Of a stretch of DNA of 64,000 nucleotides, positions 1 to 50,932 are shown one piece after another. Source of the stretch: Patescibacteria group bacterium (GTDB taxonomy: Bacteria; Patescibacteriota; Minisyncoccia; Phycocordibacterales; PALSA-1337); the NCBI GenBank assembly GCA_038064415.1, contig JBBTTD010000001.1:13738-77737 (forward strand), written 5' to 3'. Position numbers and translations under genes: made by a program. The notes under the pieces were generated by a model. That model saw only the letters and a program-made list of their open reading frames with translations, was not told the origin of the DNA and did no database searches. Every line of letters begins with the position of its first letter. Position 1 is the stretch's first letter.

Positions 1-2129
1 TTAGAGGTCTAGAAGATGGCATGGACAGACAGACTCTGTTGGGTGTAACCGGTTCCGGCAAGACATTTACTGTCGCAAATGTTATCGCCAATTATGGTAA
101 ACCAACTTTGGTTATTGCTCACAATAAAACCCTGGCCGCGCAATTAGCACAAGAATACAGAGAATTTTTTCCGGATAATGCCGTGCATTATTTTGTCTCT
201 TATTATGATTATTATCAGCCCGAAGCTTACATACCTTCAAGCGACACATACATTGAAAAAGAAGCGATGATTAATGAAGAGATTGAAAGATTGCGTCACG
301 CTTCAACGCAGGCACTCTTAACTCGCAAAGATGTGATTATTGTCGCGTCAGTTTCTTGTATTTATGGTTTAGGCAGTCCAGAAGAATACGAAAAAGTCAA
401 TTTAAAACTGAAAGTTGGCATGGAGATTTCGCGAGCTGAACTGATTCGCAAATTGGTTGATATTCATTTTGAGCGGACGACAGCTGATTTGAAGTCAGGT
501 CAATTTCGCGCTATCGGAAATACTATTGAAATTATGCCGGTAAACGAAAAGACGATTTATAGATTGGAATATGATGGTGGTTCTATTTCTTTAATTACCG
601 AACTTGATCCAATTTCTCGTTCTGTTCGTCGATCGAGTCAAGGTCCGACCTTCCGTCATCTTACGAAGTCCAATCTTGACTCAATCTATATTTTTCCAGC
701 AAAGCATTTCATTTCCAGCGATGAACAGGGCGAACGTGCTTACAAAACTATTCAAGCGGAACTCGCGGATCGCTTGAAAGTATTGGAAAAAGAGGGAAAA
801 TTGCTTGAAGCTGAACGACTGAAGCGTAGAGTTAAATACGATTTATCTATGATAAAAGAAATCGGCTACACAAATGGTATTGAGAATTATTCACGACATT
901 TTTCCGATAAAATGCCTGGCGAGCCACCAGATTCATTGCTTTCATATTTTCCACATAAAATAATTGGCACTGGTACAAATGCGCGGAATGTTCCTGATTT
1001 TTTGACTATTGTTGACGAATCGCACGTGACCATTCCTCAATTGAATGGTATGTATGCTGGCGATGCTTCACGCAAAAATACTTTGGTTGAGCACGGTTTT
1101 CGTCTACCTTCAGCCAAAGACAATCGCCCATTGAGATTTGATGAATTTTTAGAGCGAATTGGTCCGATGATTTACACTTCTGCCACGCCAGGAAAATATG
1201 AGGCAGAGACTAGTAATCAAGTAGTTGAACAGGTCATTCGTCCAACAGGATTGGTTGATCCGATTGTTGAAATTAGACCGATTAGGGAAAGTAAACGAGG
1301 AGTTGGTGCGTATTCTTATGAAGGACCGCAGTCTCTTGGCACAAAGCGTGAGGCAGTTATAACGGTCCCTCATAAGAATACGCACCAACTCCTCGTTTAC
1401 CATGGCCAAATCTTTGATTTTATCAATGAAGCGGAAAAAACTATTAAAAAAGGCGATCGAGTTTTGGCAACGACTTTAACTAAAAAAATGGCGGAGGATT
1501 TATCCGAATTCTTAAAAGAAAAAAATATTAAGTCCACTTATTTGCATAGTGACGTAAAAACCATTGAACGCATCAATATTTTGACGGACTTTCGCAAAGG
1601 GAGATATGATATTTTAGTTGGTGTCAATTTGTTGCGTGAGGGTCTGGATTTGCCCGAAGTTTCATTGATTGGAATATTGGACGCAGACAAAGAAGGATTT
1701 CTTCGATCTGAAACTTCACTTGTTCAAACTATTGGTCGTGCCGCGCGTAACTCCGCTGGTCGAGTCATTCTTTATGCCGATAATTTGACTGGTTCTATGG
1801 ATCGCGCGATCAAGGAGACCAATCGTCGTAGAGTTATTCAAGTAGCTTATAATGAAAAACATGGGATAACCCCAAAAACCATTAAAAAAGCGATTCATGA
1901 CATTACCGATCAATTACGCACTAAACACGATAAAGCTGTTGACGAATTGGTCAAAATTGATGAAGAATTGGCGCGTGTCAATCCAAAATTATTGATGAAG
2001 CAGAAACAGGATGCTATGGAAGAAGCCGTCAAACAATTGGATTTTGAGACTGCGGCGCTGATACGAGATGAATTGATAAAGCTTGAGAAAATCAAACAAT
2101 TAGATAGAAAGATGAAGGCTAGACCTTAA
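1..2129 (+). CDS. uvrB: Excinuclease ABC subunit B (UvrB), 5' end runs off the window start
   Basis: ORF 21..2129 translates to LLGVTGSGKTFT (Walker A), the helicase motifs and a C-terminal UvrB/UvrC interaction motif (ALIRDELIKLE). The frame stays open upstream of the first Met (codons for GLEDG), so the N-terminus is truncated by the window edge. Confidence 0.9.
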   Translation, partial: RGLEDGMDRQTLLGVTGSGKTFTVANVIANYGKPTLVIAHNKTLAAQLAQEYREFFPDNAVHYFVSYYDYYQPEAYIPSSDTYIEKEAMINEEIERLRHASTQALLTRKDVIIVASVSCIYGLGSPEEYEKVNLKLKVGMEISRAELIRKLVDIHFERTTADLKSGQFRAIGNTIEIMPVNEKTIYRLEYDGGSISLITELDPISRSVRRSSQGPTFRHLTKSNLDSIYIFPAKHFISSDEQGERAYKTIQAELADRLKVLEKEGKLLEAERLKRRVKYDLSMIKEIGYTNGIENYSRHFSDKMPGEPPDSLLSYFPHKIIGTGTNARNVPDFLTIVDESHVTIPQLNGMYAGDASRKNTLVEHGFRLPSAKDNRPLRFDEFLERIGPMIYTSATPGKYEAETSNQVVEQVIRPTGLVDPIVEIRPIRESKRGVGAYSYEGPQSLGTKREAVITVPHKNTHQLLVYHGQIFDFINEAEKTIKKGDRVLATTLTKKMAEDLSEFLKEKNIKSTYLHSDVKTIERINILTDFRKGRYDILVGVNLLREGLDLPEVSLIGILDADKEGFLRSETSLVQTIGRAARNSAGRVILYADNLTGSMDRAIKETNRRRVIQVAYNEKHGITPKTIKKAIHDITDQLRTKHDKAVDELVKIDEELARVNPKLLMKQKQDAMEEAVKQLDFETAALIRDELIKLEKIKQLDRKMKARP

Positions 2130-2991: not shown

Positions 2992-3075
2992 AAATAGAGG
3001 TCCGACCCCCATTTCGGAAGACAGGATCAGACCTTAGCGCAGAATTACCTAAGGTTTTACATTCATTTTTCACAT

Positions 3076-8915: not shown

Positions 8916-8931
8916 TCAAACGAAAATGAGA

Positions 8932-10881: not shown

Positions 10882-10894
10882 GTTTTTCTAAAAT

Positions 10895-10968: not shown

Positions 10969-10991
10969 TTCATACTACACCTCAAACTGTC

Positions 10992-11067: not shown

Positions 11068-11171
11068 GTGAAATTGAAATTATTCAAACAAAATCAGCAT
11101 ACATCAGAATAGAGAATTTCTCAATTTATTTTATTGCATAAAATCTTCTATTACTGTAGTATTTTCTGGTC

Positions 11172-11285: not shown

Positions 11286-11300
11286 TGTATAATACTATCA

Positions 11301-12746
11301 ATGGAGACTAAACTTGCAAATTCCGATCGTATCGCGCTCCATCCAACCATATTTGTGATTTTTGGTATTACCGGTGATTTAGCTTCAAGTAAGCTGATTC
11401 CGGCTCTTTTGGCGCTCTATTCCAAAAGACTATTGCCGCCGAATTTTGCCATAGTTGGCTTTTCTCGCCGAGTATTCAGCAGGGAAGAATTTCGAGAATT
11501 TATTCGCGATAAAATGAATGTCCGCCTCGGACAATTCAGAGAAGAAGACATCAAACATTTTTTAGATCACATGATATATGAACAAGGGATGTTTGATGAT
11601 CTCGGAGCTTATACGCGTCTGGCACTGAAATTAAAGAGCATAGATGATCGCTGGGGTCAATGTTCAAATAAATTGTTTCATCTTTCTGTCCCTCCAAATC
11701 TTTACGAAGGAATTTTAGCTAATATTTCCAATTCAAATTTATCCGCGCCTTGTGATGATGGCACGGGTTGGTCGCGTATTCTGATTGAAAAACCATTCGG
11801 CAGTGATATCAATACCGCGCATCATCTGGATAAGTTACTTGGTAAATTATTCAAGGAAGAACAAATATTCCGAATTGACCATTATTTAGCGAAAGAAGTT
11901 CTTCAAAACATTATTGCTTTTCGGTTTTCTAATTCAATGTTTGAGCCTTTATGGAATAGAAAATATATAGATAAGGTTCATATCAAGCTTTTTGAAAAAG
12001 AGACTATTGGTGAAAGAGGCGCCTTTTATGACTCAATCGGCGCATTTAGAGATGTTGGGCAAAACCATATATTGATGATGTTAGCCATCACCGCCATGGA
12101 GGCGCCGAAATCTTTTAGCGCGAATAACATTCGCAGCGAACGTGCCAGAATCTTGCGTAGACTTCGATCTTTTTCCAAGAGATCAATTAACAAAAGTGTT
12201 TTGCGCGGTCAGTATGTTGGTTACACCCAAGAACACGGTGTTTCACCAAAATCTCAGTCAGAAACTTATTTCAGAATTGAATCATACATAAATTCCGCGC
12301 GCTGGAGAGGGGTGCCATTTTATCTTGAGAGCGGTAAAGCTTTGGCTGAATCAAAAGCAGAAATTGATATATATTTTAAAGATACTAAAAATCCAAAAAT
12401 AGAAATTAAAGATTCAGCGCGAAAGATATATAAAAATTCACAGAACATTTTGACATTTAGGATCCAGCCCGATGAAGGAATAAGGATAAGATTTTTCGTC
12501 AAAAAACCTGGACATGAATTTAAGACAGAATCTAAAACCCTGAAATTTAAGTATGCTGACGCTTCTTCGTTTCATAATATACCGAATGATTATGAGCGTT
12601 TGATTCATGATGCCTTCGTCGGCGATCAAACACTGTTTGCTTCAACCGATGAGATTATGGCTTCTTGGAAATTTATCATGTCCATCTTAGACAATATAAA
12701 AAAAGTTCCATTGAAACTTTATGAGAGGGGAGCATCAGAAGTTTAG
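11301..12746 (+). CDS. zwf: Glucose-6-phosphate 1-dehydrogenase
   Basis: IFGITGDLASSKLIPAL N-terminus, RIDHYLAKE and a C-terminal G6PD domain. Confidence 0.8.
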   Translation: METKLANSDRIALHPTIFVIFGITGDLASSKLIPALLALYSKRLLPPNFAIVGFSRRVFSREEFREFIRDKMNVRLGQFREEDIKHFLDHMIYEQGMFDDLGAYTRLALKLKSIDDRWGQCSNKLFHLSVPPNLYEGILANISNSNLSAPCDDGTGWSRILIEKPFGSDINTAHHLDKLLGKLFKEEQIFRIDHYLAKEVLQNIIAFRFSNSMFEPLWNRKYIDKVHIKLFEKETIGERGAFYDSIGAFRDVGQNHILMMLAITAMEAPKSFSANNIRSERARILRRLRSFSKRSINKSVLRGQYVGYTQEHGVSPKSQSETYFRIESYINSARWRGVPFYLESGKALAESKAEIDIYFKDTKNPKIEIKDSARKIYKNSQNILTFRIQPDEGIRIRFFVKKPGHEFKTESKTLKFKYADASSFHNIPNDYERLIHDAFVGDQTLFASTDEIMASWKFIMSILDNIKKVPLKLYERGASEV

Positions 12747-12756
12747 TTGATTTCAA

Positions 12757-12947
12757 TCAAGAAACAAAATAAGGTTGTAATTTTTCAAGCCGAGGACTGT
12801 TTGAGCGACTAGAAATTACTTGGTAAAAGGCGAATGGCGTTGGAATCACCAAAGCTTTGCTTTGTGTGATTCCTGAGCCGTTTACCTAGTAATTTCAGGA
12901 GCGAGTTCCGCAGGCTTGAAAAATTACAACCTTATTTTGTTTCTTGA
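12757..12947. repeat. 191-bp element with perfect 35-bp terminal inverted repeats and nested internal inverted repeats
   Basis: Left arm TCAAGAAACAAAATAAGGTTGTAATTTTTCAAGCC (12757-12791); right arm is its exact reverse complement (12913-12947). Additional internal inverted repeats (GGAATCAC...GTGATTCC; CTAGAAATTACTTGGTAAA / TTTACCTAGTAATTTCAGG) lie between them. It starts 10 nt after the zwf stop. Confidence 0.7.
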
Positions 12948-13117
12948 TAGTCGTTATCCACCCCTCAAACCCTTGCCTGTAACAAGGGTTTTATGTTATC
13001 CACAGTTTCATTTGCGTGCCTAAAATAGTAAAGTGGTATATAATATCCATCAAGTGGGAAGAAGTGGTAAATAATTTACTTATTAATACCTCTTAAATTT
13101 TCCCAGAATTTACAAAA

Positions 13118-14830: not shown

Positions 14831-16532
14831 ACAGAGATTTCGCGCTCGTCTTATTTTAGCCTGCATAATTTTGATCGCGGGAAGTTTAGTTTTAGCGCTC
14901 TATTCCATTCAAATCATAGATGGGAAATCTTATGTCGCCAAAGCGGATAGACAGTATATAAAATCAGCAAATTCAGTTTTTGATCGAGGGTCAATATTTT
15001 TTAGCACCAAAGACGGAACATATCCGGCGGCAGCCACTTTGACTTCTGAATATTTGATATACATGAATCCTAAATTAATCAAGGATCCTGTCGGGACTTA
15101 CCAAGCACTTTCTCAATATATTAAGCTTGATCAAGAACAGTTTATGAGAAAAGCCGCTTTAGTAAATGATCCCTATGAAGAGTTGGCTCGTAAAGTTGGA
15201 GAATCAATTGTTCAATCAATTTCTGCTTTATCTTTGCGAGGTATCGGTATCTTGAAAGAAAGTAAACGCTCATATCCAGGCAATCAGTTGGCGGCGCACG
15301 CTTTGGGTATTATTGGTGAAAACAATGGTTTGGTTGAGGGGCGTTATGGACTTGAAAGAACTTATGAAGATGTTTTGGCGCGAACAGGGGTCGGTGGGAG
15401 CGCCAACATTTTTGCCCAACTATTTTCAAGTATTGGTGGTTCAGTGAGTGGTGGAAAATCTGGGGGACGGGGAGATATAGTAACGACTATTGAACCCACT
15501 GCTCAAGGATATTTGGAAAATGTTTTGGCAAAGACAAGTACTGAATGGAAGCCGGACGAGATTGGCGGAATTATCATGGATCCGCAAACCGGAAATATCG
15601 TGGCAATGGCGGCTTTACCGAGTTTTGATCCAAACGATACTTCAAAAGTTAAAGATCCGGCGGTGTTTTCTAATTCGCTTGTAGAGAATGCCTATGAGAT
15701 GGGTTCAATTATGAAACCGCTCACTATTGCCGCCGGTTTTGATAGTCAAGCAATTACTTCTTCATTCACATATGATGATACTGGCACTATAACTTTGAGT
15801 GGTAAGAAAATTTCCAACTTTGACGGTAAAGCTAGGGGAGTAATACCGGTTCAGGAAATATTGAGTCAGTCACTCAATGTCGGAGTCGCGACAGTCGCCT
15901 TGAAGGTGGGAAAAGATGATTTTTCTAAGTATTTTTTGTCATTTGGTTTAGGAAGTAAGACTGGCATTGATCAGCCAAATGAGACCAGTGGATTGGCCAG
16001 TAATTTGAAGACTGGACGTGACATTGAAATCGCTACAATGGCATACGGACAGGGTATTGCCGTTTCGCCAATGGCCATGACTCGGGCGCTTTCCATTCTT
16101 GCCAATAATGGCAAGCTCGTTACTCCACACATTGTCCAAGAAATTGATTATCTTGACGGTACAAAAAAGAAAATTAATCCAGATTTAGGAACTTCCGTCT
16201 TAGAAAAACAAACGGTTGAGGATGTTACTGGAATGTTAGTCAAAGTAGTTGATACGGCACTTCGTAAAGGCGCGCTTAAAATGGAGCATTATAGTATTGC
16301 CGCTAAGACTGGTACTGCCCAAATTCCCGATCCAGTGACCAAGGGTTATTATCCCGATCGTTACTTGCACTCATTCTTTGGGTATTTTCCAGCTTACAAC
16401 CCAAAGTTTATTATTTTCTTATACCAAAAATATCCCAAGGGCGCGCGGTATGCTTCGGAGACTTTAGTGAATCCGTTTAATGACTTGACGAAGTTTTTGA
16501 TAGATTATTATAATGTTCCGCCGGATCGATGA
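14820..16532 (+). CDS. ftsI: Penicillin-binding protein (FtsI/PBP2-type transpeptidase)
   Basis: N-terminal TM anchor, a dimerisation domain and a transpeptidase with the SIMKP (SxxK) active site. Confidence 0.8.
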   Translation: MNSKQRFRARLILACIILIAGSLVLALYSIQIIDGKSYVAKADRQYIKSANSVFDRGSIFFSTKDGTYPAAATLTSEYLIYMNPKLIKDPVGTYQALSQYIKLDQEQFMRKAALVNDPYEELARKVGESIVQSISALSLRGIGILKESKRSYPGNQLAAHALGIIGENNGLVEGRYGLERTYEDVLARTGVGGSANIFAQLFSSIGGSVSGGKSGGRGDIVTTIEPTAQGYLENVLAKTSTEWKPDEIGGIIMDPQTGNIVAMAALPSFDPNDTSKVKDPAVFSNSLVENAYEMGSIMKPLTIAAGFDSQAITSSFTYDDTGTITLSGKKISNFDGKARGVIPVQEILSQSLNVGVATVALKVGKDDFSKYFLSFGLGSKTGIDQPNETSGLASNLKTGRDIEIATMAYGQGIAVSPMAMTRALSILANNGKLVTPHIVQEIDYLDGTKKKINPDLGTSVLEKQTVEDVTGMLVKVVDTALRKGALKMEHYSIAAKTGTAQIPDPVTKGYYPDRYLHSFFGYFPAYNPKFIIFLYQKYPKGARYASETLVNPFNDLTKFLIDYYNVPPDR

Positions 16533-16557
16533 ATGAGTAACACAAATCCACAAAAGT

Positions 16558-18072
16558 GTGTACATGCTTTTTTGTGGATTCGTGTTATGTATTTGTGTTA
16601 TTCTTGAATCGTTGTCTATAAATGCCATGAACCTACTTAAAAAAATTCTTGTCTTAATCTTAACTCTTGAATCTCGCCTGATCATTGCCAAATACAAGCC
16701 TTTTATCGTCGCGATTACTGGCAGTGTCGGTAAAACTTCCACCAAAGACGCTATTTATGACGTCTTAAAAAAGCAAAGCAAATATGTTCGCAAAAGTGAA
16801 AAGAGCTTGAATAGTGAAATCGGTTTACCGTTGACTATTATCGGCGTGCCAAATGCTTGGCGCGATTTAGGCGGTTGGTCCCGAAATATTATGGAGGGGC
16901 TCCGACTCATTTTTGCTAAAAAAGAATATCCTGATTGTTTGATTTTGGAGATCGGCGCTGATCATCCCGGCGATATTATTAAAGTCGGAAAATGGTTGCA
17001 TCCGGATATTTCAGTGATCACGCAAATTAGCACTACTCCAGTGCATGTTGAATTCTTTTCATCCCCAGAAGAGGTTTTTGAAGAAAAAGCGGCACTAGCT
17101 GAAGCAATTAAACCTAGCGGGACTTTAGTTCTATTTGCGGATAATGAAAAAGTTTTGTCATTAGCGGGGCGAATTAAAAATAAAGACGTGAAAGTGATTT
17201 CTTTTGGTACGGTGCCATCCGCGCAAGTTAGAGGTTCGGAGGATCGGATCATTTACATGACACAACAAGGACTTGAAGGTCATGTTGAGATTCCAAGTCC
17301 AAATATTTCTACGATTGAAATACTGGCTTCAACCGAGACATTGGCAGATAAATTAGTAAATGATTCAGGCGCTGAAGTTTCAAATGTTAGACAGACTTCG
17401 CAAGTAAAAAACCCGATAGGTATTTCTTTTAAGCTTGACATGGACGGCAACAGCGTTCCAATATCAGTAAATGGCGTACTCGGCAAAACATATTTATATC
17501 CTCTTTTAGCGGCGGCCGCTGTCGGTAAAGTCCGAAATATTCCAATATCTTCAATTGTAGATAGTTTAAATAATTATCAAGCTCCAAAAGGCAGAATGAG
17601 CGTCATACTTGGCCTGAATGGTTCTACTTTGATAGATGACAGTTACAATTCTTCGCCGGACGCCGTTTCATCAGCCTTGCAAACTTTGAGAGAACTTGAC
17701 TGTACCGGTTCTAAAATCGTGGTACTTGGTGACATGATGGAACTTGGCCAATATTCTTCTGATGAGCATCGTAAAATTGGCAGGGAAGTCGTGGGTATCG
17801 CGAATACTTTAGTGACAGTTGGTCAGCGCTCGCGTGTGACTGCCGATGAGGCGATCAAAAGTGGTTTGTCGATTGATTCGGTACGCTCATTTGAATTATC
17901 CAGTGAAGCTGGTGAATATTTGAAGTTAATCGTTAGACAAGGTGACATTGTGCTCATAAAAGGATCACAGTCAGTCCGAATGGAAAAGACAGTAAAGATT
18001 CTTTTGCGTGAGTCGGAGAAATCAGGAGAACTATTAGTCAGGCAAGAAAAAGAATGGCTTGATAAAAAGTAA
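16558..18072 (+). CDS. Mur ligase family protein (MurF-like UDP-MurNAc-pentapeptide synthetase); true start may be the Met at 16627
   Basis: ITGSVGKTSTKD P-loop, a Mur ligase central domain and a C-terminal domain. Its position after ftsI is consistent with murE or murF; the assignment is by domain pattern only. Confidence 0.6.
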   Translation: MYMLFCGFVLCICVILESLSINAMNLLKKILVLILTLESRLIIAKYKPFIVAITGSVGKTSTKDAIYDVLKKQSKYVRKSEKSLNSEIGLPLTIIGVPNAWRDLGGWSRNIMEGLRLIFAKKEYPDCLILEIGADHPGDIIKVGKWLHPDISVITQISTTPVHVEFFSSPEEVFEEKAALAEAIKPSGTLVLFADNEKVLSLAGRIKNKDVKVISFGTVPSAQVRGSEDRIIYMTQQGLEGHVEIPSPNISTIEILASTETLADKLVNDSGAEVSNVRQTSQVKNPIGISFKLDMDGNSVPISVNGVLGKTYLYPLLAAAAVGKVRNIPISSIVDSLNNYQAPKGRMSVILGLNGSTLIDDSYNSSPDAVSSALQTLRELDCTGSKIVVLGDMMELGQYSSDEHRKIGREVVGIANTLVTVGQRSRVTADEAIKSGLSIDSVRSFELSSEAGEYLKLIVRQGDIVLIKGSQSVRMEKTVKILLRESEKSGELLVRQEKEWLDKK

Positions 18073-20275: not shown

Positions 20276-20291
20276 ATCTTCGCTTCAAAAG

Positions 20292-20329
20292 AAAACCGCT
20301 CTAAGAGAAATCTCGGAGCGGTTTTCTTT
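20292..20329 (+). terminator. Rho-independent terminator of cspA
   Basis: AAAACCGCTC-taagagaaatctcg-GAGCGGTTTT followed by CTTTT. Confidence 0.7.
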
Positions 20330-20335
20330 TAAAAT

Positions 20336-20379
20336 CAAGGTCGGACCTTGGGTGATTTGGAGCTAAGGTCCGACCTTGA
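20336..20379. repeat. Palindromic element family 1: two AAGGTCGGACCTT-type units in inverted orientation
   Basis: CAAGGTCGGACCTTGGgtgatttggagCTAAGGTCCGACCTTG. The exact reverse complement of this 43-bp sequence recurs at 50806-50850. Confidence 0.8.
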
Positions 20380-20416
20380 TTTTACGAACTTCCTCCATAT
20401 TTGTTATACTATCTTC

Positions 20417-32278: not shown

Positions 32279-32283
32279 TTCTT

Positions 32284-32323
32284 AGCGAGGTCCGACCTTG
32301 ATATATTGAGGTCGGACCTCGCT
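32284..32323. repeat. Palindromic element family 1 (AGCGAGGTCCGACCTTGatatatTGAGGTCGGACCTCGCT)
   Basis: A perfect hairpin directly after the rpoB stop. It shares the GCGAGGTC(C/G)GACCTCGC core with 37762-37786. Confidence 0.8.
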
Positions 32324-32343
32324 GAAATCTAATTTAAACTATT

Positions 32344-32886
32344 ATGAATAAAAAAATTATTTTGGGGGTTATAATTATAGCGATATTAGTCGTTGCTGGT
32401 TGGTATCTATTCAAACCACGCCTTGCGTGTTGGCCATATTGTCCTAATATGACTAATCAGAATAGAGAGGAGATAAAACAATCGGCACTTGAAGTACAAA
32501 ATAATCAGATTAATAAGTCAAATAATTCTTTTTCTGTTCAAGATCTTGCTTATATTAATCAAAAATACGGATTTTCTCTTATTTTTCCAATTTCATGGAC
32601 AGATTATCAGGTTAATCAGAGAAATCAGGCAATGACAGAATTTGGGTTTTATGTCCCAGATGCCTTTCCAAAATTTCAAGCTCTATTTTATGTAGGTGTT
32701 ACTAAAGATGAACAAAGTTGTGAAGAATGGTCGAATCCTAAGACTGATGAGCCACACGATTATTGTATTATAAAAGTTGATGGAAATATCTATCATTATG
32801 GGAAAGCACAAGACATTATTCCAATACTTGACCGAAAATATCAAGATATTGATTTGATCATAAAAACATTTAAATTTATTAAATAA
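32344..32886 (+). CDS. Hypothetical membrane-anchored protein inserted between rpoB and rpoC
   Basis: 180 aa with an N-terminal TM helix and no recognisable domain. It lies in the normally tight rpoB-rpoC junction. Confidence 0.5.
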   Translation: MNKKIILGVIIIAILVVAGWYLFKPRLACWPYCPNMTNQNREEIKQSALEVQNNQINKSNNSFSVQDLAYINQKYGFSLIFPISWTDYQVNQRNQAMTEFGFYVPDAFPKFQALFYVGVTKDEQSCEEWSNPKTDEPHDYCIIKVDGNIYHYGKAQDIIPILDRKYQDIDLIIKTFKFIK

Positions 32887-36564: not shown

Positions 36565-36567
36565 TGG

Positions 36568-36692
36568 CGAAGGAGGCAGAATGTGTGCAGATACTGATTA
36601 ACAAAAGGTTATCATGATATTAGTTAAACTACCACGTCGTCTAACTTCTTAGTTGTTAATCAGTATCTGCACACATTCTGCCTCCTTTGCTT
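36568..36692. repeat. 125-bp element with perfect 36-38 bp terminal inverted repeats and a 46-nt loop
   Basis: GCGAAGGAGGCAGAATGTGTGCAGATACTGATTAACAA ... TTGTTAATCAGTATCTGCACACATTCTGCCTCCTTTGC, beginning 4 nt after the rpoC stop. Confidence 0.75.
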
Positions 36693-36749
36693 AGTCGATT
36701 TTCAATATGTTTCCACTCCATTCTAACAGTGTGTTAGTATGTAAACACT

Positions 36750-37724
36750 ATGCGCAAGATAATTATTAAAGAAGGCCCCCTTGTCTTTCTTCGGAATGTC
36801 TTGTCTATGGAAATCATCGCCGCCCTATTCTTTTTTGGCTTGTCATTTATAAGTAATTATGGCCAATTGTACCAAAATTGGGGTTTTTCTGATTACATCA
36901 GATTTGACCTTTTTGAAATATTTATCTTTTCTGTCTTTCAGTTAGTATATATCTCACTTTTATTTTTTGATTGGTATTTTACCAACTATGAAATTAACGG
37001 AAAGGAGATAATCAAAAAATCAGGTTTACTATTTCGCCGTCGTAAAGCTGTAAGTTTGGCTGATGTAGCTTCAGTAGAAATAAACCAGTCGCCGATAAGT
37101 CGGATGATGTCTCATGCCACCATCATTCTTGAACACGCCAATGGTCATATGACAAAAATCAGAAATGTCTCTAATTTTGATGAATATATTTACCTAATCA
37201 AGAGTATGGTTCAAGAAGCTTCTGGACGGACCTTGACACAAGATCCGAAAGTTTTATTGGAAAAGGGCGAAGGATTTTTTATTGAATTTAAACAGACGCT
37301 TCGTTATGACGCGCGCAAAGGTGAAATTAGCAGGGAATTAGAGAAAATGGTTCTCAAAACGATTGTTGCCTTTCTGAACGCAGAAGGAGGTACTCTACTG
37401 ATTGGTGTAAATGATGATGCTGAAATTGTTGGTCTAGATAACGATTACAAAACACTGACCAAAAAAGATCGTGATGGGTTTGAGAATCATATGACTATGT
37501 TAGTAAAAACTCTGATTGGTTTGTCATTCACAAAATATGTCACGGTGCGGTTTGATTCAATTGACGGTAAAGATATTTGCATTGTGATAGTTAAAGAAGG
37601 TCACAAACCGGCGTATCTACACAATGGTGATAAAAAAGAAGACTTCTTTGTGCGAGTAGGGAACTCAACGCAACCTTTTTCTATGAGTGAGGCGGAGGAG
37701 TATATCAAGACGCATTGGAAATAA
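36750..37724 (+). CDS. Membrane bPH (YdbT/DUF304-like) domain fused to a Schlafen/AlbA_2 (PF04326-like) putative nucleic-acid-binding domain
   Basis: Two TM helices and a bacterial PH-like segment, then GEGFFIEFKQTL ... TIVAFLNAEGGTLLIGVNDDAEIVGLDND, the diagnostic AlbA_2/SLFN core. Confidence 0.5.
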   Translation: MRKIIIKEGPLVFLRNVLSMEIIAALFFFGLSFISNYGQLYQNWGFSDYIRFDLFEIFIFSVFQLVYISLLFFDWYFTNYEINGKEIIKKSGLLFRRRKAVSLADVASVEINQSPISRMMSHATIILEHANGHMTKIRNVSNFDEYIYLIKSMVQEASGRTLTQDPKVLLEKGEGFFIEFKQTLRYDARKGEISRELEKMVLKTIVAFLNAEGGTLLIGVNDDAEIVGLDNDYKTLTKKDRDGFENHMTMLVKTLIGLSFTKYVTVRFDSIDGKDICIVIVKEGHKPAYLHNGDKKEDFFVRVGNSTQPFSMSEAEEYIKTHWK

Positions 37725-37761
37725 ACTCTGATATTTGGCAAGGCCTACCCTTGTCTAAATT

Positions 37762-37786
37762 CTTAGCGAGGTCGGACCTCGCTAAG
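37762..37786. repeat. Palindromic element family 1 (CTTAGCGAGGTCGGACCTCGCTAAG, a perfect 25-bp palindrome)
   Basis: Sits between the convergent SLFN-like gene and typA; a partial extra copy CCGACCTCGC lies at 37805-37814. Confidence 0.8.
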
Positions 37787-39587
37787 ATATTAAATCCTTC
37801 CTTTCCGACCTCGCCCGATCTAATTCTGTCAAAAACTTTTTGCGTAGGCGAACACTTTTTGGAGTAATTTCCAAATATTCATCATCACGCATCAATTCCA
37901 GACCTCTTTCAATAGACAATTCAAATGGTGGTACCAGCATCAACGCCTCGTCTTTACCCGACGAACGCATATTACTCATAGCTTTACCTTTTGTTGGATT
38001 GACATCCATATCGTCGCCTTTGGCAGTATCACCAATAACCATACCTTCGTAAACTTCAACTGCTGGTCCTACGAAGAGGCGACCGCGATCTTGAAGATTC
38101 CAAAGTGAGAAGCCAAGAGTTTTGCCAGAAGTCATAGATGTCATTGAGCCGGTTTCGCGTTTTTCTATTTCGCCGACATGATTTTTAAATTCCGTAACTC
38201 GACTAGACATGATACCTTCACCTTTTGTGTCAATTGTAAATGCGTTACGATAACCCAAAAGACCGCGAGTTGGAATTTCAAAGACCATGCGTACTTGATT
38301 GCCATGAGCTTTCATGTCATTCATGATTCCTTTTCTTTTGCCTAGAGTTTCTATAATTGTCCCAGAATATTCTTGCGGACAATCAATGATCACTTCCTCA
38401 AAAGGTTCTAACATTTTGTCATTTTCTTCTTTAACAATGACTTTTGGCTGTGAGACTTGTAGTTCATATCCTTCGCGACGCATATTTTCTAGTAAAATAG
38501 CGATATGGAGCTCACCTCTGCCAAATACATTCAGGTATTCGTTTGAAGAAAAGTCAACTTTTAAACCGACATTTGTTTCTAATTCTTTGTGGAGCCGTTC
38601 ACGGATTTGTCGGCCAGTTACAAAAGTCCCTTCGCGTCCGGCGAAAGGTGAATTGTTAACTAAAAATTGCAGAGAAATCGTCGGTTCATCAACAGTAATG
38701 GCCGGAAGTGGCTGTGAGTTTTCATTATCGGTAATTGTCTCGCCAATATAAATGTTAGGAATACCAGCGACGGTAATAATATCACCAGATTCTGCTTGAT
38801 CAATTTCTACACGCTTTTTTCCTTCAAAAGTGAATAATTTAGTAATTTTACCTGTAAATGATTTGCCATTGATGTCTTTAACCCAGACACTTTGGCCATT
38901 TTTTATTATTCCATTATAAATACGGCAAATGGCGAGGCGACCAAGGAAATTGTCATAACTTAGATTAAATACTTGTGCTTGAAGTGAATTGTCAGTTATG
39001 CCGCTAAGACTTTTTTTATTTGCCGGTGGTACATGCTCAAGAATAGTATCCAAAAGTGGTGTCAGATCTTTGGAGTCGTCAATTAAAGATTTTTTCGCGA
39101 TTCCAGTTCGGCCAATAGCATAAATAGTAGGGAAATCAATCTGACTATCATGCGCGCCAAGTTCCATAAAAAGCTCTAGGACTTCGTCATGAACACGAAG
39201 CGGATTGGCTGCTGGTTTATCAATTTTGTTGATTATTACAATAGGTTTCAATCCTAATTCAAGTGATTTCTTCAAGACAAAGCGAGTCTGTGGCATAGGA
39301 CCTTCTTGGGCGTCTACGACTAAAAGAACAGTGTCAATTGAACGAAGAACGCGTTCAACTTCAGATCCGAAATCAGCATGGCCTGGAGTGTCCACAATGT
39401 TGATTTTGGTACCCTTATACATTATTGAGGTATTTTTAGCGTATATCGTAATACCGCGCTCCTGTTCGAGCGCGTTTGAGTCCATTGTACCTTCGTCACC
39501 ATGACCGCATTGGGCCATGATAGCGTCAGTCAGCGTAGTCTTCCCATGATCTACGTGAGCGATAATTGCAATATTACGAATCTCCAT
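37782..39587 (-). CDS. typA: Translational GTPase TypA/BipA
   Basis: MEIRNIAIIAHVDHGKTTLTDAIM, the DTPGHADF and NKID G motifs, and an EF-G-like domain series. The start is trimmed to the MEIRN Met. Confidence 0.85.
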   Translation of the reverse strand: MEIRNIAIIAHVDHGKTTLTDAIMAQCGHGDEGTMDSNALEQERGITIYAKNTSIMYKGTKINIVDTPGHADFGSEVERVLRSIDTVLLVVDAQEGPMPQTRFVLKKSLELGLKPIVIINKIDKPAANPLRVHDEVLELFMELGAHDSQIDFPTIYAIGRTGIAKKSLIDDSKDLTPLLDTILEHVPPANKKSLSGITDNSLQAQVFNLSYDNFLGRLAICRIYNGIIKNGQSVWVKDINGKSFTGKITKLFTFEGKKRVEIDQAESGDIITVAGIPNIYIGETITDNENSQPLPAITVDEPTISLQFLVNNSPFAGREGTFVTGRQIRERLHKELETNVGLKVDFSSNEYLNVFGRGELHIAILLENMRREGYELQVSQPKVIVKEENDKMLEPFEEVIIDCPQEYSGTIIETLGKRKGIMNDMKAHGNQVRMVFEIPTRGLLGYRNAFTIDTKGEGIMSSRVTEFKNHVGEIEKRETGSMTSMTSGKTLGFSLWNLQDRGRLFVGPAVEVYEGMVIGDTAKGDDMDVNPTKGKAMSNMRSSGKDEALMLVPPFELSIERGLELMRDDEYLEITPKSVRLRKKFLTELDRARSERKDLIS

Positions 39588-41965: not shown

Positions 41966-42101
41966 TTAAAAAGTAATCAAAGATTAAAGACGAACTTAGT
42001 AAACATGAATTTCGTAGAAGTTATGTTGCTTCACCACATTATTTTCATTGAGGGTTCTGCATAACTTCTACAAAATTCATGTTTACTAAGTTCACGACAT
42101 A

Positions 42102-43652
42102 ATGTTCAAGATTCAAAATCATAAATCAGGTCTAATCTTGGTAGACATCATTCTGGCGCTTACTTTAGCGACTTTGTTTGTCGTAATTATCACACAATCA
42201 TCGCGTAATCTGAGGGATGTTTTTGAGTCAGCGCGTGAACGAAATCGTTTGCTTGATGTCTATGAACAGCATGCAAGTGAATTTGAAGACCTAATGCCTT
42301 ATGAATCTCGCGTGATTACTTTTGACGCTGATGGATGGAATACTTCAACCACGACGATTGGTGCCATCGCGCGTTGGTATGGCAATGATCGAATTCAAAC
42401 CGATGTGACGATTTCCACTGAATCACCGGGAACATTCGCTACTTCAACAACTGGTTATTCACGACATATTACTTTTGATGTCATCAGAAACTTTCCATTT
42501 ACGAACATCAATAATTTTGCCGGGACGCCATTATGTTCAGTTGATTTTACGAACAAAGAGGTTGTTGGTTCGTACTCATTTCAGCGCGATCTCAATTTAA
42601 TTAATACTTCAACATTTTTATCATTAAAATCTCCTCAATCTTTAGTTCCTACGATCACTCCAATTACTTTACCAGTCAATCCATTATTACCTCTGACTGA
42701 TATTGAAGCGCGAAATGGCGTGGTTTATATTTCAAGCGATTCTCCACTTGCTTCAGACCCAGACTTATTTATTATTGATATTAAAGATCCCAAACACGCG
42801 CAAATTATTTCTTCAATAAATACCGGACCGGGAATAGCAAGCATAACTTTGGCTGGTAACCGCGTATTCGCGGCGGCGGCAAGTACAGCGACCCAGTTGC
42901 ATGTTATTCGTCTTGATGGCTTAAATTTGCCAATCTTGGAAAAGAAATATCAATTGCCTTTACCATATGCCACAGCTACTCCACCTTTGGCTAGTTCAAT
43001 TTTTTATAATAAAAACCATGTTTTTCTTGGTACGACAAAATGGGACGACAATGAGTTCTCAATTATTGATGTGAGTAATCCAGCCGATCCGATTCAAATT
43101 GGCGGATTAGAAACTGGTAGTCAGATTAATGATATTTTTGTACGAAATCATATCGCTTATATTACTGATTCAGATCAACAACAATTGAGTGTTGTAAATA
43201 TTCATAATCTATCCAATCCGAGTTTCTTGGCGTCATTTAGTCCGTCTGGTTGGCAACGGCAGGAAGGGAAAGCCCTCTCGTTTTTTGAAGATAGCTTGAA
43301 TATGACTAGAACTTCCGGTGGATTTAACATCAGACAAGATCACGAGCTTTTTTCTTGGGCTACAACATCATTGGCTGAATTAAATTCTGGGATTGTGCCA
43401 AGTGATTCATTTGCGCCAAAATCAGTTGATATTTCCGGCGGAGCTTATGGTGTGGTAACTGATCGATCTTATATCTATGTAGCGACGCGCCAGCTAAATA
43501 AAGAGTTTCAAATATTTGACCAGAATTTATCTACGACGACGGCAAAAACTTTTTCGTTGCCAGCTTTGCCGCAAATAATGACTTGTGACGGAGATTATTT
43601 ATATATTTTAGCTAATAATGCGCCCGTGATTTATCAGATTTTATTTAAATAA
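42102..43652 (+). CDS. Large pseudopilin-like protein (N-terminal hydrophobic pilin-type helix, beta-rich body)
   Basis: N-terminus KSGLILVDIILALTLATLFVVI resembles a class III signal with Asp at +5; the rest is predicted beta-rich. Confidence 0.45.
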   Translation: MFKIQNHKSGLILVDIILALTLATLFVVIITQSSRNLRDVFESARERNRLLDVYEQHASEFEDLMPYESRVITFDADGWNTSTTTIGAIARWYGNDRIQTDVTISTESPGTFATSTTGYSRHITFDVIRNFPFTNINNFAGTPLCSVDFTNKEVVGSYSFQRDLNLINTSTFLSLKSPQSLVPTITPITLPVNPLLPLTDIEARNGVVYISSDSPLASDPDLFIIDIKDPKHAQIISSINTGPGIASITLAGNRVFAAAASTATQLHVIRLDGLNLPILEKKYQLPLPYATATPPLASSIFYNKNHVFLGTTKWDDNEFSIIDVSNPADPIQIGGLETGSQINDIFVRNHIAYITDSDQQQLSVVNIHNLSNPSFLASFSPSGWQRQEGKALSFFEDSLNMTRTSGGFNIRQDHELFSWATTSLAELNSGIVPSDSFAPKSVDISGGAYGVVTDRSYIYVATRQLNKEFQIFDQNLSTTTAKTFSLPALPQIMTCDGDYLYILANNAPVIYQILFK

Positions 43653-43656
43653 AACA

Positions 43657-43872
43657 ATGCATAACACGAATCCACGAATAAAAAACGCGAGAAAATTGGA
43701 CGAATCTTTTAGGTGTTTTAATTTCGTCGTGCGAGGTATGACTTTGATAGAAGTAATAATTTACACGGTTTTACTTTCTTTGTTGATAACCAATATGATC
43801 AATTATCTATATACAATGCATATTAACAACATTAAACTCATTAACGATGTTCAAGATTCTCAAAATCTATAA
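43657..43872 (+). CDS. Type IV prepilin (minor pilin), unusually long leader if the start is at 43657
   Basis: VRG|MTLIEVIIYTVLLSLL is a canonical prepilin peptidase site (G-M-T-L-I-E). An alternative TTG/GTG start nearer the cleavage site is possible. Confidence 0.6.
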   Translation: MHNTNPRIKNARKLDESFRCFNFVVRGMTLIEVIIYTVLLSLLITNMINYLYTMHINNIKLINDVQDSQNL

Positions 43873-44131: not shown

Positions 44132-44139
44132 GACCTTGC

Positions 44140-44935
44140 TTATGAAATAAAAAAATGGCCCGGACATTCGCTTCATTGCTGAAACAAATGCCGGACCAGA
44201 TCGTGAGAGTCTCCATCATCGCTTGTAAGTATCGGAATTAATCCTGTCTTAGATTGAACTCCGTCTTAGACCTTCCGAGTTTAGCCTTGCGGTTTATTTC
44301 GTTAAGTCATCTTGCAATTGATTCTGGAATTCCTCTACCTTTTTTAGGGGCAGAAGGACATTGTGAGTTGGTGTCCTCACCGTGATTTTTCGCTTGCGCT
44401 ACTATTTCATGTCCTGGCGTGAACGAACTGATACGGTGTTCGCTTCGTCGGTCTATTGTTCTTTGTTCCCTCCACTGGCGATCTTACGATCGTTGTATGA
44501 AAGAATGTTCGGAACTCATTCTGGACTACCTAGTCCAGTGCATACCTAGTCATTGCTTCTTGATGATATTGATGCTTTTGAGGCACCAACATTCATTGGC
44601 ATGAGTACTTTTTACATTAGCACCCACTGAACTCTGTATGGGTTTTGCAACCTTTTTGACCTTGCGGTCATACAAGTAATGTTTAGTGTCATCAGTTGTT
44701 TTCGTATCTTACCTTAGTTGAATTTCTTCTTCTTTGGTTTGAAACTATACAATTGTAAACATTCTTTGTATTTTGGGCGCCTTTCTCTCTAGGCTCCCCG
44801 GTTTCACACCTTGACTTGATGTGAGACCGTAAACTTTTAAGGAACAACTCCACTTGGAGCGTGAAGAGGATGATACACCCACCAAGCAATCCTCGTCAAG
44901 CGTTTTTAAAATACAAATTATTTTAGGAATCTTGT
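44140..44935. other. About 800-bp ORF-free, GC-richer intergenic region with multiple local hairpins (candidate structured RNA or decayed gene)
   Basis: No ORF above about 60 aa with any recognisable product on either strand. Local hairpins include CTGGACTA-cc-TAGTCCAG, GGTTTCACA...TGTGAGACC and GACC-ttgc-GGTC. This gap is exceptional in an otherwise compact window. Confidence 0.4.
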
Positions 44936-45012
44936 CAAATTTTGGTATTTTAGGGATAAAAAAATGAGTAGCTAAACTTTGCTTTTTTGATTTTACACTG
45001 TAGACTTTCACT

Positions 45013-46122
45013 ATGTCACTCTCAATCGGCATCGTCGGTCTCCCAAATGTTGGAAAATCAACCTTATTCAACGCGCTCACAAAAAAGAGCGTCCTAGTGG
45101 CAAATTATCCATTTGCGACAATTGATCCATCGGTCGGTGTCGTGGCGGTCCCGGATGATCGACTCTGGAAGTTGAGTGAATTCTCAAAATCAGCTAAAAC
45201 TATTCCTGCCGTCGTGGAATTCGTAGACATTGCGGGTTTAGTCAAAGGCGCGTCTGTCGATGAGGGACTCGGTAATCAATTCCTTTCAAATATCCGTGAG
45301 ACTGACGCTATCGCCGAAGTGGTGAGGATTTTTGAGGATGACAACATTATCCATGTTGATGGTAAAATCAATCCACTCAAGGATATTGAAGTCATAAATT
45401 TAGAACTTATTTTGGCTGATTTGCAGACAGTTTCAAAAAGGAGCTCAAATCTTGGTAAAGAAGTTAAGGCTGGCAAAAAAGAGGCGATTATTGAACAGGG
45501 TTTGATTCAGAAGTTAAAAATCGCGCTTGAAACGGGAAAATTCGCTTCTACCGTCATAGCTGATGAATTTGAGAAACCTTTTTTGAAATCACTTCACCTT
45601 CTGACATCTAAACCATTTATGTATGTTTTGAACAAGAAATCGGGTGGCAAAAATTTAGATGAATTTCAAGGTCCGACCTTGGATGAAAGATATATCTCGC
45701 TGATGGCGTTTTTTAAAGAAGTCAATGCTTCATGGGTAATTGTTGATGCCGGGATTGAACAGGAGCTCAAAGATATTGATGATAAAGATAAAAAAGAACT
45801 TCGCGAAGGTCTTGGCGCGAATGATGACGGGATTAATAATTTGATCAAAAAAGGCCACGAGCTTTTAAATTTGATTACTTACTTCACGACCGGGGAAGAC
45901 GAAAGTCGTGCCTGGACGATTAAAAAAGGTTGGACCGCGCCTGAAGCTGGTACCGCAATTCATGGTGATTTTAAGGATAAATTTATCCGCGCGGAAGTTA
46001 TTGAGTGGGATAAATTACTTGTCGCTGGTTCATTTGGCGTGGCGCGTGAAAAAGGACTTCTCCGCACGGAGGGAAAAGAGTATGTGGTCAAAGATGGGGA
46101 TGTGATGGAGTTTAAGATTTAG
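45013..46122 (+). CDS. ychF: Ribosome-binding ATPase YchF (Obg family)
   Basis: IGIVGLPNVGKSTLFNALT, G-domain motifs and a C-terminal TGS domain. Confidence 0.85.
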   Translation: MSLSIGIVGLPNVGKSTLFNALTKKSVLVANYPFATIDPSVGVVAVPDDRLWKLSEFSKSAKTIPAVVEFVDIAGLVKGASVDEGLGNQFLSNIRETDAIAEVVRIFEDDNIIHVDGKINPLKDIEVINLELILADLQTVSKRSSNLGKEVKAGKKEAIIEQGLIQKLKIALETGKFASTVIADEFEKPFLKSLHLLTSKPFMYVLNKKSGGKNLDEFQGPTLDERYISLMAFFKEVNASWVIVDAGIEQELKDIDDKDKKELREGLGANDDGINNLIKKGHELLNLITYFTTGEDESRAWTIKKGWTAPEAGTAIHGDFKDKFIRAEVIEWDKLLVAGSFGVAREKGLLRTEGKEYVVKDGDVMEFKI

Positions 46123-49482: not shown

Positions 49483-49495
49483 GCCGTATAGTAGA

Positions 49496-49602
49496 CAAGA
49501 AAACAGTATGCGCATTTTATCTCAAGACAAGAGAGTCTTGTCTCGCGAGTCACATAACTACCATCTTTGGATTTGAGATAAAATGCGCATACTGTTTTCT
49601 TG
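49496..49602. repeat. 107-bp element with perfect 30-bp terminal inverted repeats and a 47-nt loop
   Basis: CAAGAAAACAGTATGCGCATTTTATCTCAA ... TTGAGATAAAATGCGCATACTGTTTTCTTG, starting 14 nt after the leuS stop. The loop contains an inner hairpin GACAAGA..TCTTGTC. Confidence 0.75.
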
Positions 49603-49755
49603 CTTAAAATACACTTTGTTTATATTTGACAACGATAAGACAATACTGTAGTGTATACCAATCAAGCCTGGGTGTGGGATTACGCACATTCCCACAAGAT
49701 TGACTTTGTTACAAGCTAGTGATACAAATATATAAATTATTTATTAGCAACTATT

Positions 49756-50793
49756 ATGGCAACATCAACAATCTCATTTAAACCCAAGCAGATCGTCAAA
49801 CGTCTTCTCGCTTCATTACCTGATCGCGCTCGTGAAGTTATCATATATCGTTATGGACTTGGTTCTGATACCAAGCGTATGACACTTGACGCAATTGGAA
49901 AGAAATATGGTATTACTCGCGAACGAGTTCGTCAGATAGAAAACTACGCGCTCGGAATTATCCGCAAATCTGACGAGTATCGGTTGGAAAAAGCAATTTT
50001 TGCTGAACTAGAGACCCTGCTTCATGCTTTGGGTGGAGTTGTCGTGGAAGATGATTTCCTTGGTCATGTCTCAAAGGACAAGAGTCTTCAAAATCATGTT
50101 CATTTTCTCTTAGTTATTGGTGAACCTTTCAAAAAAAGAAAAGAAGATGATGAGTTCAATCATCGTTGGCATGTCAATGAGGAACTTTCTACTCAAGTAG
50201 AAGATGCCCTACGCAAACTTTATAACAATCTTAATACGCAAGATCTTTTGCCTGAATCAGAGATTATCAACAAATTTCTTCAGCATTTAGAGAGTGTTTC
50301 TGAACGCTACAAGAATCAAGAGATTATGAAACGCTGGTTGGCATTATCTAAATCAATCGGAAAGAATGCTTTAGGAGATTGGGGTGCGGCAAATTCTTCA
50401 AATATCAAGACCAAGGGTATGCGTGATTATGCTTTTCTAGTTATCAGAAAACATGGTTCGCCGATCCATTTTCGTGATGTAGCCAAGCAGATTATGGCGA
50501 TGTTTAACAAGAAAGCTCATGTTGCCACGACTCACAATGAGTTGATTAAAGATCCTCGCTTCGTGCTAGTCGGTCGTGGTTTATATGCTTTGGCAGAATG
50601 GGGTTATGCGCCAGGAATTGTACGAGATGTTATACGACTTGTTATACAGAAAAATGGTCCAATGACCAAAAATGAGATAATCTCTAAAGTCCTGAAGGAA
50701 CGCTATGTTAAGGAAAACACCATTGCGGTAAATCTCCAAAACCCGAAGTATTTCAAAAAAGACAAGGATGGTAAGTATTCGGTGGTTGCGTAA
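49756..50793 (+). CDS. Sigma-70 region-4 HTH fused to HARE-HTH-like domain(s)
   Basis: N-terminus VIIYRYGLGSDTKRMTLDAIGKKYGITRERVRQIENYALGIIRK matches sigma-70 region 4.1/4.2. The C-terminus (FRDVAKQI ... DPRFVLVGRGLYALAEWGY) matches the HARE-HTH fold of the RNAP delta subunit. Confidence 0.5.
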   Translation: MATSTISFKPKQIVKRLLASLPDRAREVIIYRYGLGSDTKRMTLDAIGKKYGITRERVRQIENYALGIIRKSDEYRLEKAIFAELETLLHALGGVVVEDDFLGHVSKDKSLQNHVHFLLVIGEPFKKRKEDDEFNHRWHVNEELSTQVEDALRKLYNNLNTQDLLPESEIINKFLQHLESVSERYKNQEIMKRWLALSKSIGKNALGDWGAANSSNIKTKGMRDYAFLVIRKHGSPIHFRDVAKQIMAMFNKKAHVATTHNELIKDPRFVLVGRGLYALAEWGYAPGIVRDVIRLVIQKNGPMTKNEIISKVLKERYVKENTIAVNLQNPKYFKKDKDGKYSVVA

Positions 50794-50805
50794 GAAATAA
50801 AAAAA

Positions 50806-50850
50806 CCAAGGTCGGACCTTAGCTCCAAATCACCCAAGGTCCGACCTTGG
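50806..50850. repeat. Palindromic element family 1 (exact reverse complement of the 20336-20379 copy), flanked by an A-run and a T-run
   Basis: AAAAAACCAAGGTCGGACCTTagctccaaatcaccCAAGGTCCGACCTTGGTTTTTTT has the shape of a bidirectional terminator. Confidence 0.8.
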
Positions 50851-50932
50851 TTTTTTTAAATAGTCCTCGGCAATAAAAACATGTGTGCACTATTATTGTT
50901 TTTGGTTAAGCTGTTCATGTTATAATAGTGGC

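Follow-up and report, generated by a model that had tools for sequence, protein, structure and literature searches.

When a gene stands between a long inverted repeat and a short palindrome, the two structures may be traces of its insertion, devices that shield it from its neighbours, or elements that came to lie there independently of it. The question arises twice in a 64-kb stretch of DNA (the window, by which we mean the whole stretch analysed) from a 125-kb contig of the Hainich groundwater metagenome assembly ENA ERZ1292624. The host is a groundwater bacterium of the candidate phyla radiation (CPR), and the RpoC and UvrB proteins of the window are closest to those of Paceibacteria and Taylorbacteria-like CPR members. 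One of the bracketed genes, located between rpoC and bipA, encodes bPH and SLFN/AlbA_2 domains (the bPH-SLFN gene), and the other, located after leuS, encodes a sigma region 4 and a HARE domain (the sigma4-HARE gene). An initial annotation had treated both as accessory genes, and the structures around them as cassette boundaries or transcriptional insulators. Although the pattern exists, we read it as two abundant kinds of element meeting by coincidence. The explanation that we favour, at a probability of roughly 60%, is that two conserved genes chance to have beside them palindromic DNA of two kinds, unrelated to each other and both found across the genome.

All the predicted inverted repeats and palindromes were found in place, and their folds are much more stable than those of shuffled sequence (z -7 to -15). 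The hairpin downstream of rpoC begins 2 nt past the rpoC stop codon, and its shuffled counterparts average -24.9 kcal/mol (see Table 1 for the native value), while the hairpin downstream of leuS begins 3 nt past the stop codon of that gene and stops short of a conserved stretch, the putative promoter/leader of the sigma4-HARE gene. Searches against Pfam bore out the domain calls (bPH_2 and SLFN_AlbA_2; Sigma70_r4 and HARE-HTH). The short palindromes share the core AGGTCSGACCT, which gave 22 strand-matches in comparison with 0.28 expected from shuffles.

The accessory status of the two genes did not stand, both being conserved and syntenic in relatives. The relatives compared were L088, L089 and L090 for the rpoC region and L091, L092 and L093 for the leuS/HARE region. 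Orthologues of the bPH-SLFN protein (79% and 70% identity) sit between rpoC and a convergent bipA in L088 and L090, the two relatives whose contigs extend to this site. The same interval also holds truB and one more small gene in each of them, as well as an ABC transporter gene in L088, none of which the window has at this place. No long inverted repeat follows rpoC in any of L088, L089 and L090, and L089 has just a 14+14-nt palindrome there. Homologues of the sigma4-HARE protein show 79-90% identity and a near-constant length across all 120 clusters listed, a level of conservation similar to that of RpoC (81-91% identity) and above that of UvrB. The gene order ychF-leuS-HARE-DUF8128-yceG-mnmA is the same in the window and in L091, L092 and L093, and neither L091 nor L092 has a long hairpin between leuS and the sigma4-HARE gene. 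Composition is equally unremarkable: GC content and GC content at third codon positions (GC3) are 0.366 and 0.354 for the bPH-SLFN gene and 0.398 and 0.347 for the sigma4-HARE gene, against window means of 0.398 and 0.341. PADLOC gave no significant defence-system assignment for bPH-SLFN and matched the sigma4-HARE protein through sigma region 4 only.

Approximately 130 nt upstream of the sigma4-HARE gene are conserved in four genomes (the window, and L091, L092 and L093 just before position 6001). The shared blocks comprise TTGACA, followed by AAGCCTGGGTGT, a GGGA/TCCC hairpin and a conserved block GATTGACTTT.TTACAAGC.AGTGATACAA, and this stretch may be a regulatory leader.

Nor are the structures special to the bracketed genes, since the same kinds adjoin many core genes and some lie inside genes. 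The frequency of double bracketing was assessed by randomising five long-hairpin gaps and five palindrome gaps among the intergenic gaps in 100,000 trials. Two or more genes with a hairpin upstream and a palindrome downstream arose in 7.5-8.5% of the random trials, with 0.5 such genes expected; the observed double bracketing is thus close to chance (P about 0.08).

The short palindromes form one family (family-1, core GGTCSGACC), whose core is the most frequent non-low-complexity 10-mer of the window. Seven of nine sites are extragenic and near stop codons, counting a doublet once and including a site after dnaJ that lies outside the window. Sites follow rpoB, a response-regulator gene, csp, bPH-SLFN/bipA, the sigma4-HARE gene and dnaJ, a further two are inside uvrB and ychF, and a partial match lies inside rpoC. 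Two subfamilies can be distinguished. Subfamily A is an inverted doublet, CAAGGTCGGACCTT-N15-AAGGTCCGACCTTG, with A-runs and T-runs on its flanks; its two copies, 20331-20383 and 50798-50858, are one 53-nt element in opposite orientations (96% identical). Subfamily B, TTCTTAGCGAGGTCSGACCTCGCTAAGA, is doubled after rpoB and single at its other two places, one between bPH-SLFN and bipA and one after dnaJ. The palindromes at 37756-37792, 50798-50858 and 32284-32323 fold with z between -6.9 and -11.1 against shuffles. A scan for a GC-rich stem-loop with a direct U-tract, which overall did not exceed shuffles, found this terminator arrangement at 50798-50858 on both strands and also picked up 32282-32325, and no direct U-tract is present at 37762-37786. 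Both subfamily A doublets look like bidirectional terminators.

The family also looks specific to this species. The relative L090, with an RpoC 88% identical to that of the window, is devoid of the GGTCSGACC motif, and its top 10-mer is an analogous palindrome, TTCTAGGCCSGGCCTAGAA, at gene ends equivalent to those occupied by GGTCSGACC in the window. Its places in L090 (3242, 3873/3896, 15557, 16778) comprise a doublet after an aminotransferase gene, a site after bPH-SLFN, a site after bipA and one inside a gene; the palindrome TTCTAGGCCGGGCCTGG stands 6 nt after the L090 bPH-SLFN stop codon. The position downstream of bPH-SLFN has therefore been kept between L090 and the window while the sequence was replaced genome-wide, a behaviour of REP/REPIN-like repeats (repetitive extragenic palindromes) or of uptake-sequence variants rather than of cassette ends. 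To judge by these features, family-1 looks like a REP-like repeat doubling as a terminator: a species-specific short repeat of two subfamilies, single or in inverted doublets, placed mostly a few nucleotides from stop codons, which would be kept uniform within a genome and differ between related genomes. When transcribed it would give a GC-rich stem, and with A-tract and T-tract flanks it should act as a bidirectional intrinsic terminator.

The long hairpins are of another kind. Besides the two at the bracketed genes, the window holds a long hairpin after pilC, one inside uvrB (1291-1400), one after zwf (12756-12960) and a shorter one in the ftsI/murE gap. Seven intergenic long hairpins, namely those at 36567, 49486, 41992 and 12756 in the window together with three in L092 and L093, start 0-27 nt after a co-directional upstream stop codon. 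They show no mutual sequence likeness in BLAST (word size 9) and belong to no Rfam family at either gathering or permissive E-values across the window, and the hairpin after rpoC is single-copy in the 83 kb of this genome available for copy counts (the window plus 19 kb more). Presence varies between relatives: at the leuS/HARE junction L093 has an unrelated hairpin of ~40 bp, and L092 has a 165-nt hairpin after the sigma4-HARE gene instead. Such hairpins would be sporadic palindromic insertions, each with its own sequence, that arise or land just downstream of core-gene stop codons and occasionally in frame in tolerant protein linkers. An intergenic copy would be transcribed as the 3' end of the upstream mRNA, where its stem of 34-49 bp would most likely block 3' exonucleases, serve as an RNase III target or halt read-through. 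We infer such a 3'-end structure, one that blocks exonucleases or is cleaved by RNase III, and consider a dedicated terminator less likely.

Two side observations concern individual hairpins. The sole extra BLAST match is a 37-nt stretch (86% identity, opposite strands) between 16568-16602 and 43648-43683, the first copy of which is at the ftsI/murE hairpin. In the rpoC hairpin, each arm (36578-36608 and its mirror on the other strand) reads AAGGAGG-N5-ATG followed by a six-codon open reading frame (ORF), MCADTD, which is probably a coincidence.

Several findings weigh against the explanation by two independent element kinds. As to their spread, the window ORFs that were scanned include no transposase, RAYT (REP-associated tyrosine transposase) or integrase, target-site duplications did not come to light, and each long hairpin is single-copy in the 83 kb, so that mobility is not demonstrated. 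As to their action, a U-tract is absent from every long hairpin of the window, and the pilC hairpin lies between adjacent pilus genes on the same strand, with 8 nt left to the next start codon, a setting in which a terminator would be counter-productive. The analysis shows that the elements exist, how stable and how over-represented they are, where they lie, which relatives have or lack them and that the bracketed genes are conserved; any activity as terminator, stabiliser or processing site, and the way in which either element spreads, we infer. For the double bracket, a P value of about 0.08 falls short of significance but is low. Finally, two genomes independently have a long hairpin at the leuS/HARE junction, which could mean selection for strong structure there.

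This last point favours the idea that hairpin and downstream palindrome are dedicated insulators, selected to isolate the bPH-SLFN and sigma4-HARE genes from the strongly expressed rpoC and leuS. We consider it unlikely, and the insulator idea of the initial annotation plausible only as a generic role at transcript ends: the downstream palindromes look like terminators, and the long hairpins abut upstream stop codons, both of those in question separating the end of a long housekeeping gene from the upstream region that belongs to the next gene. The L093 hairpin at the same junction, being independent and unrelated, points in the same direction. Neither feature, however, is particular to single accessory genes, as the same element kinds flank many other genes and also occur inside uvrB. 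Furthermore, L091 and L092 show the unchanged gene order with no long hairpin ahead of the sigma4-HARE gene, bPH-SLFN is retained in L088 and L090 with no such hairpin either, the long hairpins have no U-tract, and the double association itself is near chance.

For the palindromes taken alone, a rather improbable alternative is that family-1 is a signal resembling DNA uptake sequences, or a genome signature resembling HIP1, with the terminator role secondary as in Neisseria uptake-sequence pairs. Its rank as the most frequent 10-mer, the two full copies in coding regions (uvrB and ychF) with the partial match in rpoC, the inverted pairs at gene ends and the possession by L090 of its own motif version would all fit such a signal, and so would the type IV pilus genes in the window, CPR bacteria being competent for DNA uptake. 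Known uptake sequences occur at about one per kb, against a density here of about one per 7 kb (about nine places in 64 kb, two of them coding); moreover, the family-1 motif is itself palindromic, unlike known uptake sequences, and most copies are extragenic.

The ~205-nt hairpin after zwf (12756-12960) stands apart from the other long hairpins. Its core, GAGGACUGUYUGAGC/GCGAGUUCCGCAG, is found again in L092 (7040-7202) within an otherwise unrelated hairpin, and a scan of metagenome contigs with the core pattern returned at least 119 exact-motif stretches (L094-L212) on contigs ranging in GC from 0.32 to 0.72; the same scan of viral contigs gave no match. Gene context differs among the window, L092 and L129. 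The helices flanking the core covary, with none of 500 shuffles reaching the observed covariation score and slid controls scoring lower. In 17 members with long near-perfect outer stems, mostly from AT-rich genomes, 11 of 12 outer pairs show compensatory changes, and the outer stem is long, perfect and hypervariable even where the cores are near-identical. No Rfam model at any threshold fits the element when 12735-12975 alone and 27 related loci are searched, and full-text literature searches on the core motif, CPR palindromes and 6S RNA found nothing relevant. Identity with 6S RNA, the signal recognition particle RNA or a ribozyme was considered against consensus sequences, with no tool result speaking for it. 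The strand could not be read from G-U versus A-C counts (41 against 47, uninformative). By its conservation and covariation, the element may represent an undescribed RNA family.

It is improbable that the hairpins at 36567 and 49486 are likewise independent small-RNA genes. The covarying family to which the zwf hairpin belongs lends the idea some colour, as do two hairpins in L093 (5744-5861 and 12040-12153), which have different stems of 39-40 bp and nearly the same apical loop (CAGAACGGT ... GTGTACAAATACAA). The covariance model of the zwf family, which scores the window copy at 90.9 bits, matches no other window hairpin, and when run with filters off (model R1) it rejected those at 36567 and 49486 as degenerate members. 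These two have no counterpart in relatives and no Rfam match. Exact 22-mers from the two arms are absent from IMG/VR viral contigs, a weak test in which mismatches are disallowed. A role of the stems as phage-directed spacers was rejected on the same absence of matches, by exact matching only.

The hairpin in uvrB lies within a coding sequence. Its 40-aa insertion keeps the reading frame open, and in alignments of solved UvrB structures the chain runs on without interruption from one side of residues 422-461 to the other. Among 32 UvrB relatives (76-87% identity), 10 are without the insertion and the others carry about 20 to 87 extra residues falling into several unrelated sequence groups. The insertion DNA folds as a long hairpin in three genomes (-78, -83 and -67 kcal/mol), and in two of them the stem reaches conserved flanking codons. 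Hairpin insertions at this site were located at 11447-11567 in L085 and 11316-11434 in L086, and one relative (L085, 17568-17688) has a hairpin with 30-nt arms inside its uvrA ORF. Two of the UvrB insertions read VIPAKAGIQ...FRGNDT at the protein level, which we take, at that level only, to be the typical translation of a common palindromic repeat.

Tentatively, and with a low probability, these observations might be brought together by a process in Paceibacteria of this lineage that makes and keeps long, perfectly paired palindromes of changing sequence; the 12756-12960 core would then be a new and widespread cellular structured RNA. Such a process could consist of inverted duplication, by fold-back or template switching, after which one arm is corrected to match the other. 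If it exists, it would explain the hairpins after stop codons, the in-frame hairpins at the uvrB hot spot and in the uvrA of a relative, and the 30-40-bp perfect, hypervariable outer stem around the 12756-12960 core.

A reading of the elements as attC-like recombination sites or transposon ends that remained after gene insertion is very improbable as a general account. Its best case is the 180-aa gene between rpoB and rpoC, which has a family-1 doublet on its upstream side and which the initial annotation had rightly described as interrupting a normally contiguous pair. In every relative in which both are visible (L089, L090 and seven species representatives) the two polymerase genes adjoin, either overlapping or with 1-115 nt between them. 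The GC content (0.306) and GC3 (0.204) of the 180-aa gene are about 2.8-2.9 standard deviations below the window mean. Its product has no match in Pfam, NCBIfam or PADLOC, and the family is small (86 representative proteins at E<=1e-3 out of 1.84 billion). A lineage-specific, compositionally foreign insertion is thus supported here, with no element on the rpoC side, where the gap is 9 nt. As regards bPH-SLFN and sigma4-HARE, their synteny in relatives, of which only L093 has a long hairpin upstream (an unrelated one), refutes the cassette reading by the criterion that the initial annotation had itself set. Upstream and downstream elements also differ in kind, the hairpin arms have no R''/R' attC core sites, and no recombinase was found among the window ORFs scanned.

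That the long inverted repeats are assembly artefacts is scarcely credible, and they are not: Logan contigs do break inside the rpoC hairpin, and three apparent perfect 48-49-nt repeats at other loci of relatives are runs of N, but the arms have mismatches and the loops are asymmetric, the uvrB insertion leaves its frame open, an independent Logan assembly, L003, includes the rpoC hairpin's loop together with its right arm, and an independent assembly from another well, 99.967% identical to window positions 1-12129 and gap-free over 12.1 kb, reproduces the uvrB hairpin base for base.

Table 1. Elements and genes discussed in the text, with positions in the window
Feature	Position	Strand	Remarks
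Long hairpin after rpoC	36567..36690	.	38-nt arms with one mismatch (97% complementary), 48-nt loop; dG -74.9 kcal/mol, z -14.7
bPH_2 + SLFN/AlbA_2 gene	36750..37724	+	Pfam; conserved resident of the rpoC-bipA interval, not a cassette
Subfamily B singlet (TTCTTAGCGAGGTC-G-GACCTCGCTAAGA)	37756..37792	.	Convergent bPH-SLFN/bipA junction; perfect core 37762-37786; overlaps bipA stop codon
Long hairpin after leuS	49486..49612	.	49-nt arms, 84% paired, inner part perfect; dG -59.5, z -9.8
Conserved stretch, putative leader/promoter of sigma4-HARE gene	49620..49755	+	Blocks shared in four-genome comparison
Sigma70_r4 + HARE-HTH gene	49756..50793	+	Pfam; highly conserved core gene of the lineage
Subfamily A doublet (CAAGGTCGGACCTT-N15-AAGGTCCGACCTTG)	50798..50858	.	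5 nt past HARE stop codon; A-run and T-run flanks
Subfamily A doublet, second copy	20330..20384	.	Cold-shock gene/valS gap; directly after canonical terminator hairpin 20284-20333
Subfamily B doublet (20+20 nt)	32284..32323	.	6 nt past rpoB stop codon, ahead of the 180-aa gene
Family-1 core in uvrB	641..651	.	Inside a 13-aa lineage-specific insertion; reads QGPTF
Family-1 core in ychF	45669..45679	.	Variable loop; reads QGPTL
Family-1 core, one mismatch	2998..3008	.	7 nt past response-regulator stop codon, before uvrA
Family-1 site outside the window	10 nt after dnaJ, just beyond the window		Subfamily B singlet
Long hairpin after pilC	41992..42093	.	34-nt arms, 97% complementary; z -12.7
In-frame 40-aa insertion in uvrB (residues 422-461)	1284..1403	+	110-nt hairpin, arms 1291-1328 and 1363-1400
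~205-nt hairpin after zwf	12756..12960	+	Core GAGGACUGUYUGAGC ... GCGAGUUCCGCAG; conserved structured element
Shorter hairpin	16527..16611		ftsI/murE gap
180-aa predicted membrane-anchored protein	32344..32886	+	Lineage-specific insertion between rpoB and rpoC

The surroundings of these features are those of a core genome region. The window carries uvrB, uvrA, uvrC and ddl; zwf; mraZ, rsmH, ftsI and murE; csp and valS; rpsP and trmD; rpoB and rpoC; bipA; pilB and pilC; ychF and leuS; the sigma4-HARE gene; yceG and mnmA; alaS; and ribosomal protein genes. Searched with Rfam 15, it yielded four tRNAs as the only matches reaching the gathering threshold, with the hairpins drawing sub-threshold matches to generic miRNA-precursor models. 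Two gaps, 44132-45012 (881 nt) and 8447-9273 (827 nt), contain no long ORF, and the sole Rfam match in them is a tRNA-Ala in 8447-9273. The leucyl-tRNA synthetase (46531-49482) has an alpha/beta-hydrolase domain insert at residues about 276-442, and its counterparts in L091 (1759-5838), L093 (2187-5744) and L092 (3304-5844) have NUDIX and HAD inserts in two and no insert in the third.

In annotating CPR genomes, one should not take gene-adjacent hairpins and palindromes for evidence of horizontal insertion, since in this case rpoB, rpoC, leuS, dnaJ and other core genes have them as well. A species-specific, terminator-like palindrome that is changed between relatives bears on how terminators or REP-like repeats are kept uniform in tiny genomes. 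Also of interest are the long hairpins carried in frame in the DNA-repair genes uvrB and uvrA, and the membership of one hairpin (12756-12960) in a conserved structured element that is apparently undescribed.

Comparison with known systems places the two kinds of element differently. Integron attC cassettes share with the bracketed genes an imperfect inverted repeat beside a single gene, variable in sequence and conserved in hairpin shape. Here, however, the repeat is upstream of the gene and not at its 3' end, the RYYYAAC/GTTRRRY (R''/R') core is lacking (the arms end in GCGAAGG.../...CCTTTGC and GTATAGT.../...AAAATAC), the repeats form no array, the window ORFs that were scanned include no integrase, and the genes are conserved in place in relatives. 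The long hairpins are closer to Rickettsia palindromic elements (RPEs) and to insertions resembling miniature inverted-repeat transposable elements (MITEs), in that a palindromic insert of ~110-125 nt occurs here both in frame in the essential gene uvrB, where it is apparently tolerated, and between genes, and is present or absent among relatives. RPEs form recognisable multi-copy families, unlike the long hairpins, each of which differs in sequence from the rest and was met only once in the DNA available; neither a terminal inverted repeat consensus nor target duplications were found here.

Family-1, as a short motif over-represented in both genes and spacers, recalls the Neisseria DNA uptake sequence (DUS), the Haemophilus uptake signal sequence (USS) and the cyanobacterial HIP1, where inverted pairs also form terminators and related species also have different motif versions. 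It differs from them in its much lower density and, from DUS and USS, in being palindromic. Set against REP/REPIN elements, which are mobilised by RAYT (Y1) transposases and also serve as terminators or mRNA stabilisers, family-1 departs in the lack of a RAYT gene among the ORFs scanned in the 83 kb, in its low density with two full copies in coding sequence, and in half-sites parted by one S base, which make an almost perfect DNA palindrome. It resembles them in being a short palindrome with a species-specific consensus, strongly over-represented and mostly extragenic at gene 3' ends, that stands alone or in inverted pairs, which a short spacer separates and which form a longer hairpin (20330-20384, 32284-32323 and 50798-50858).

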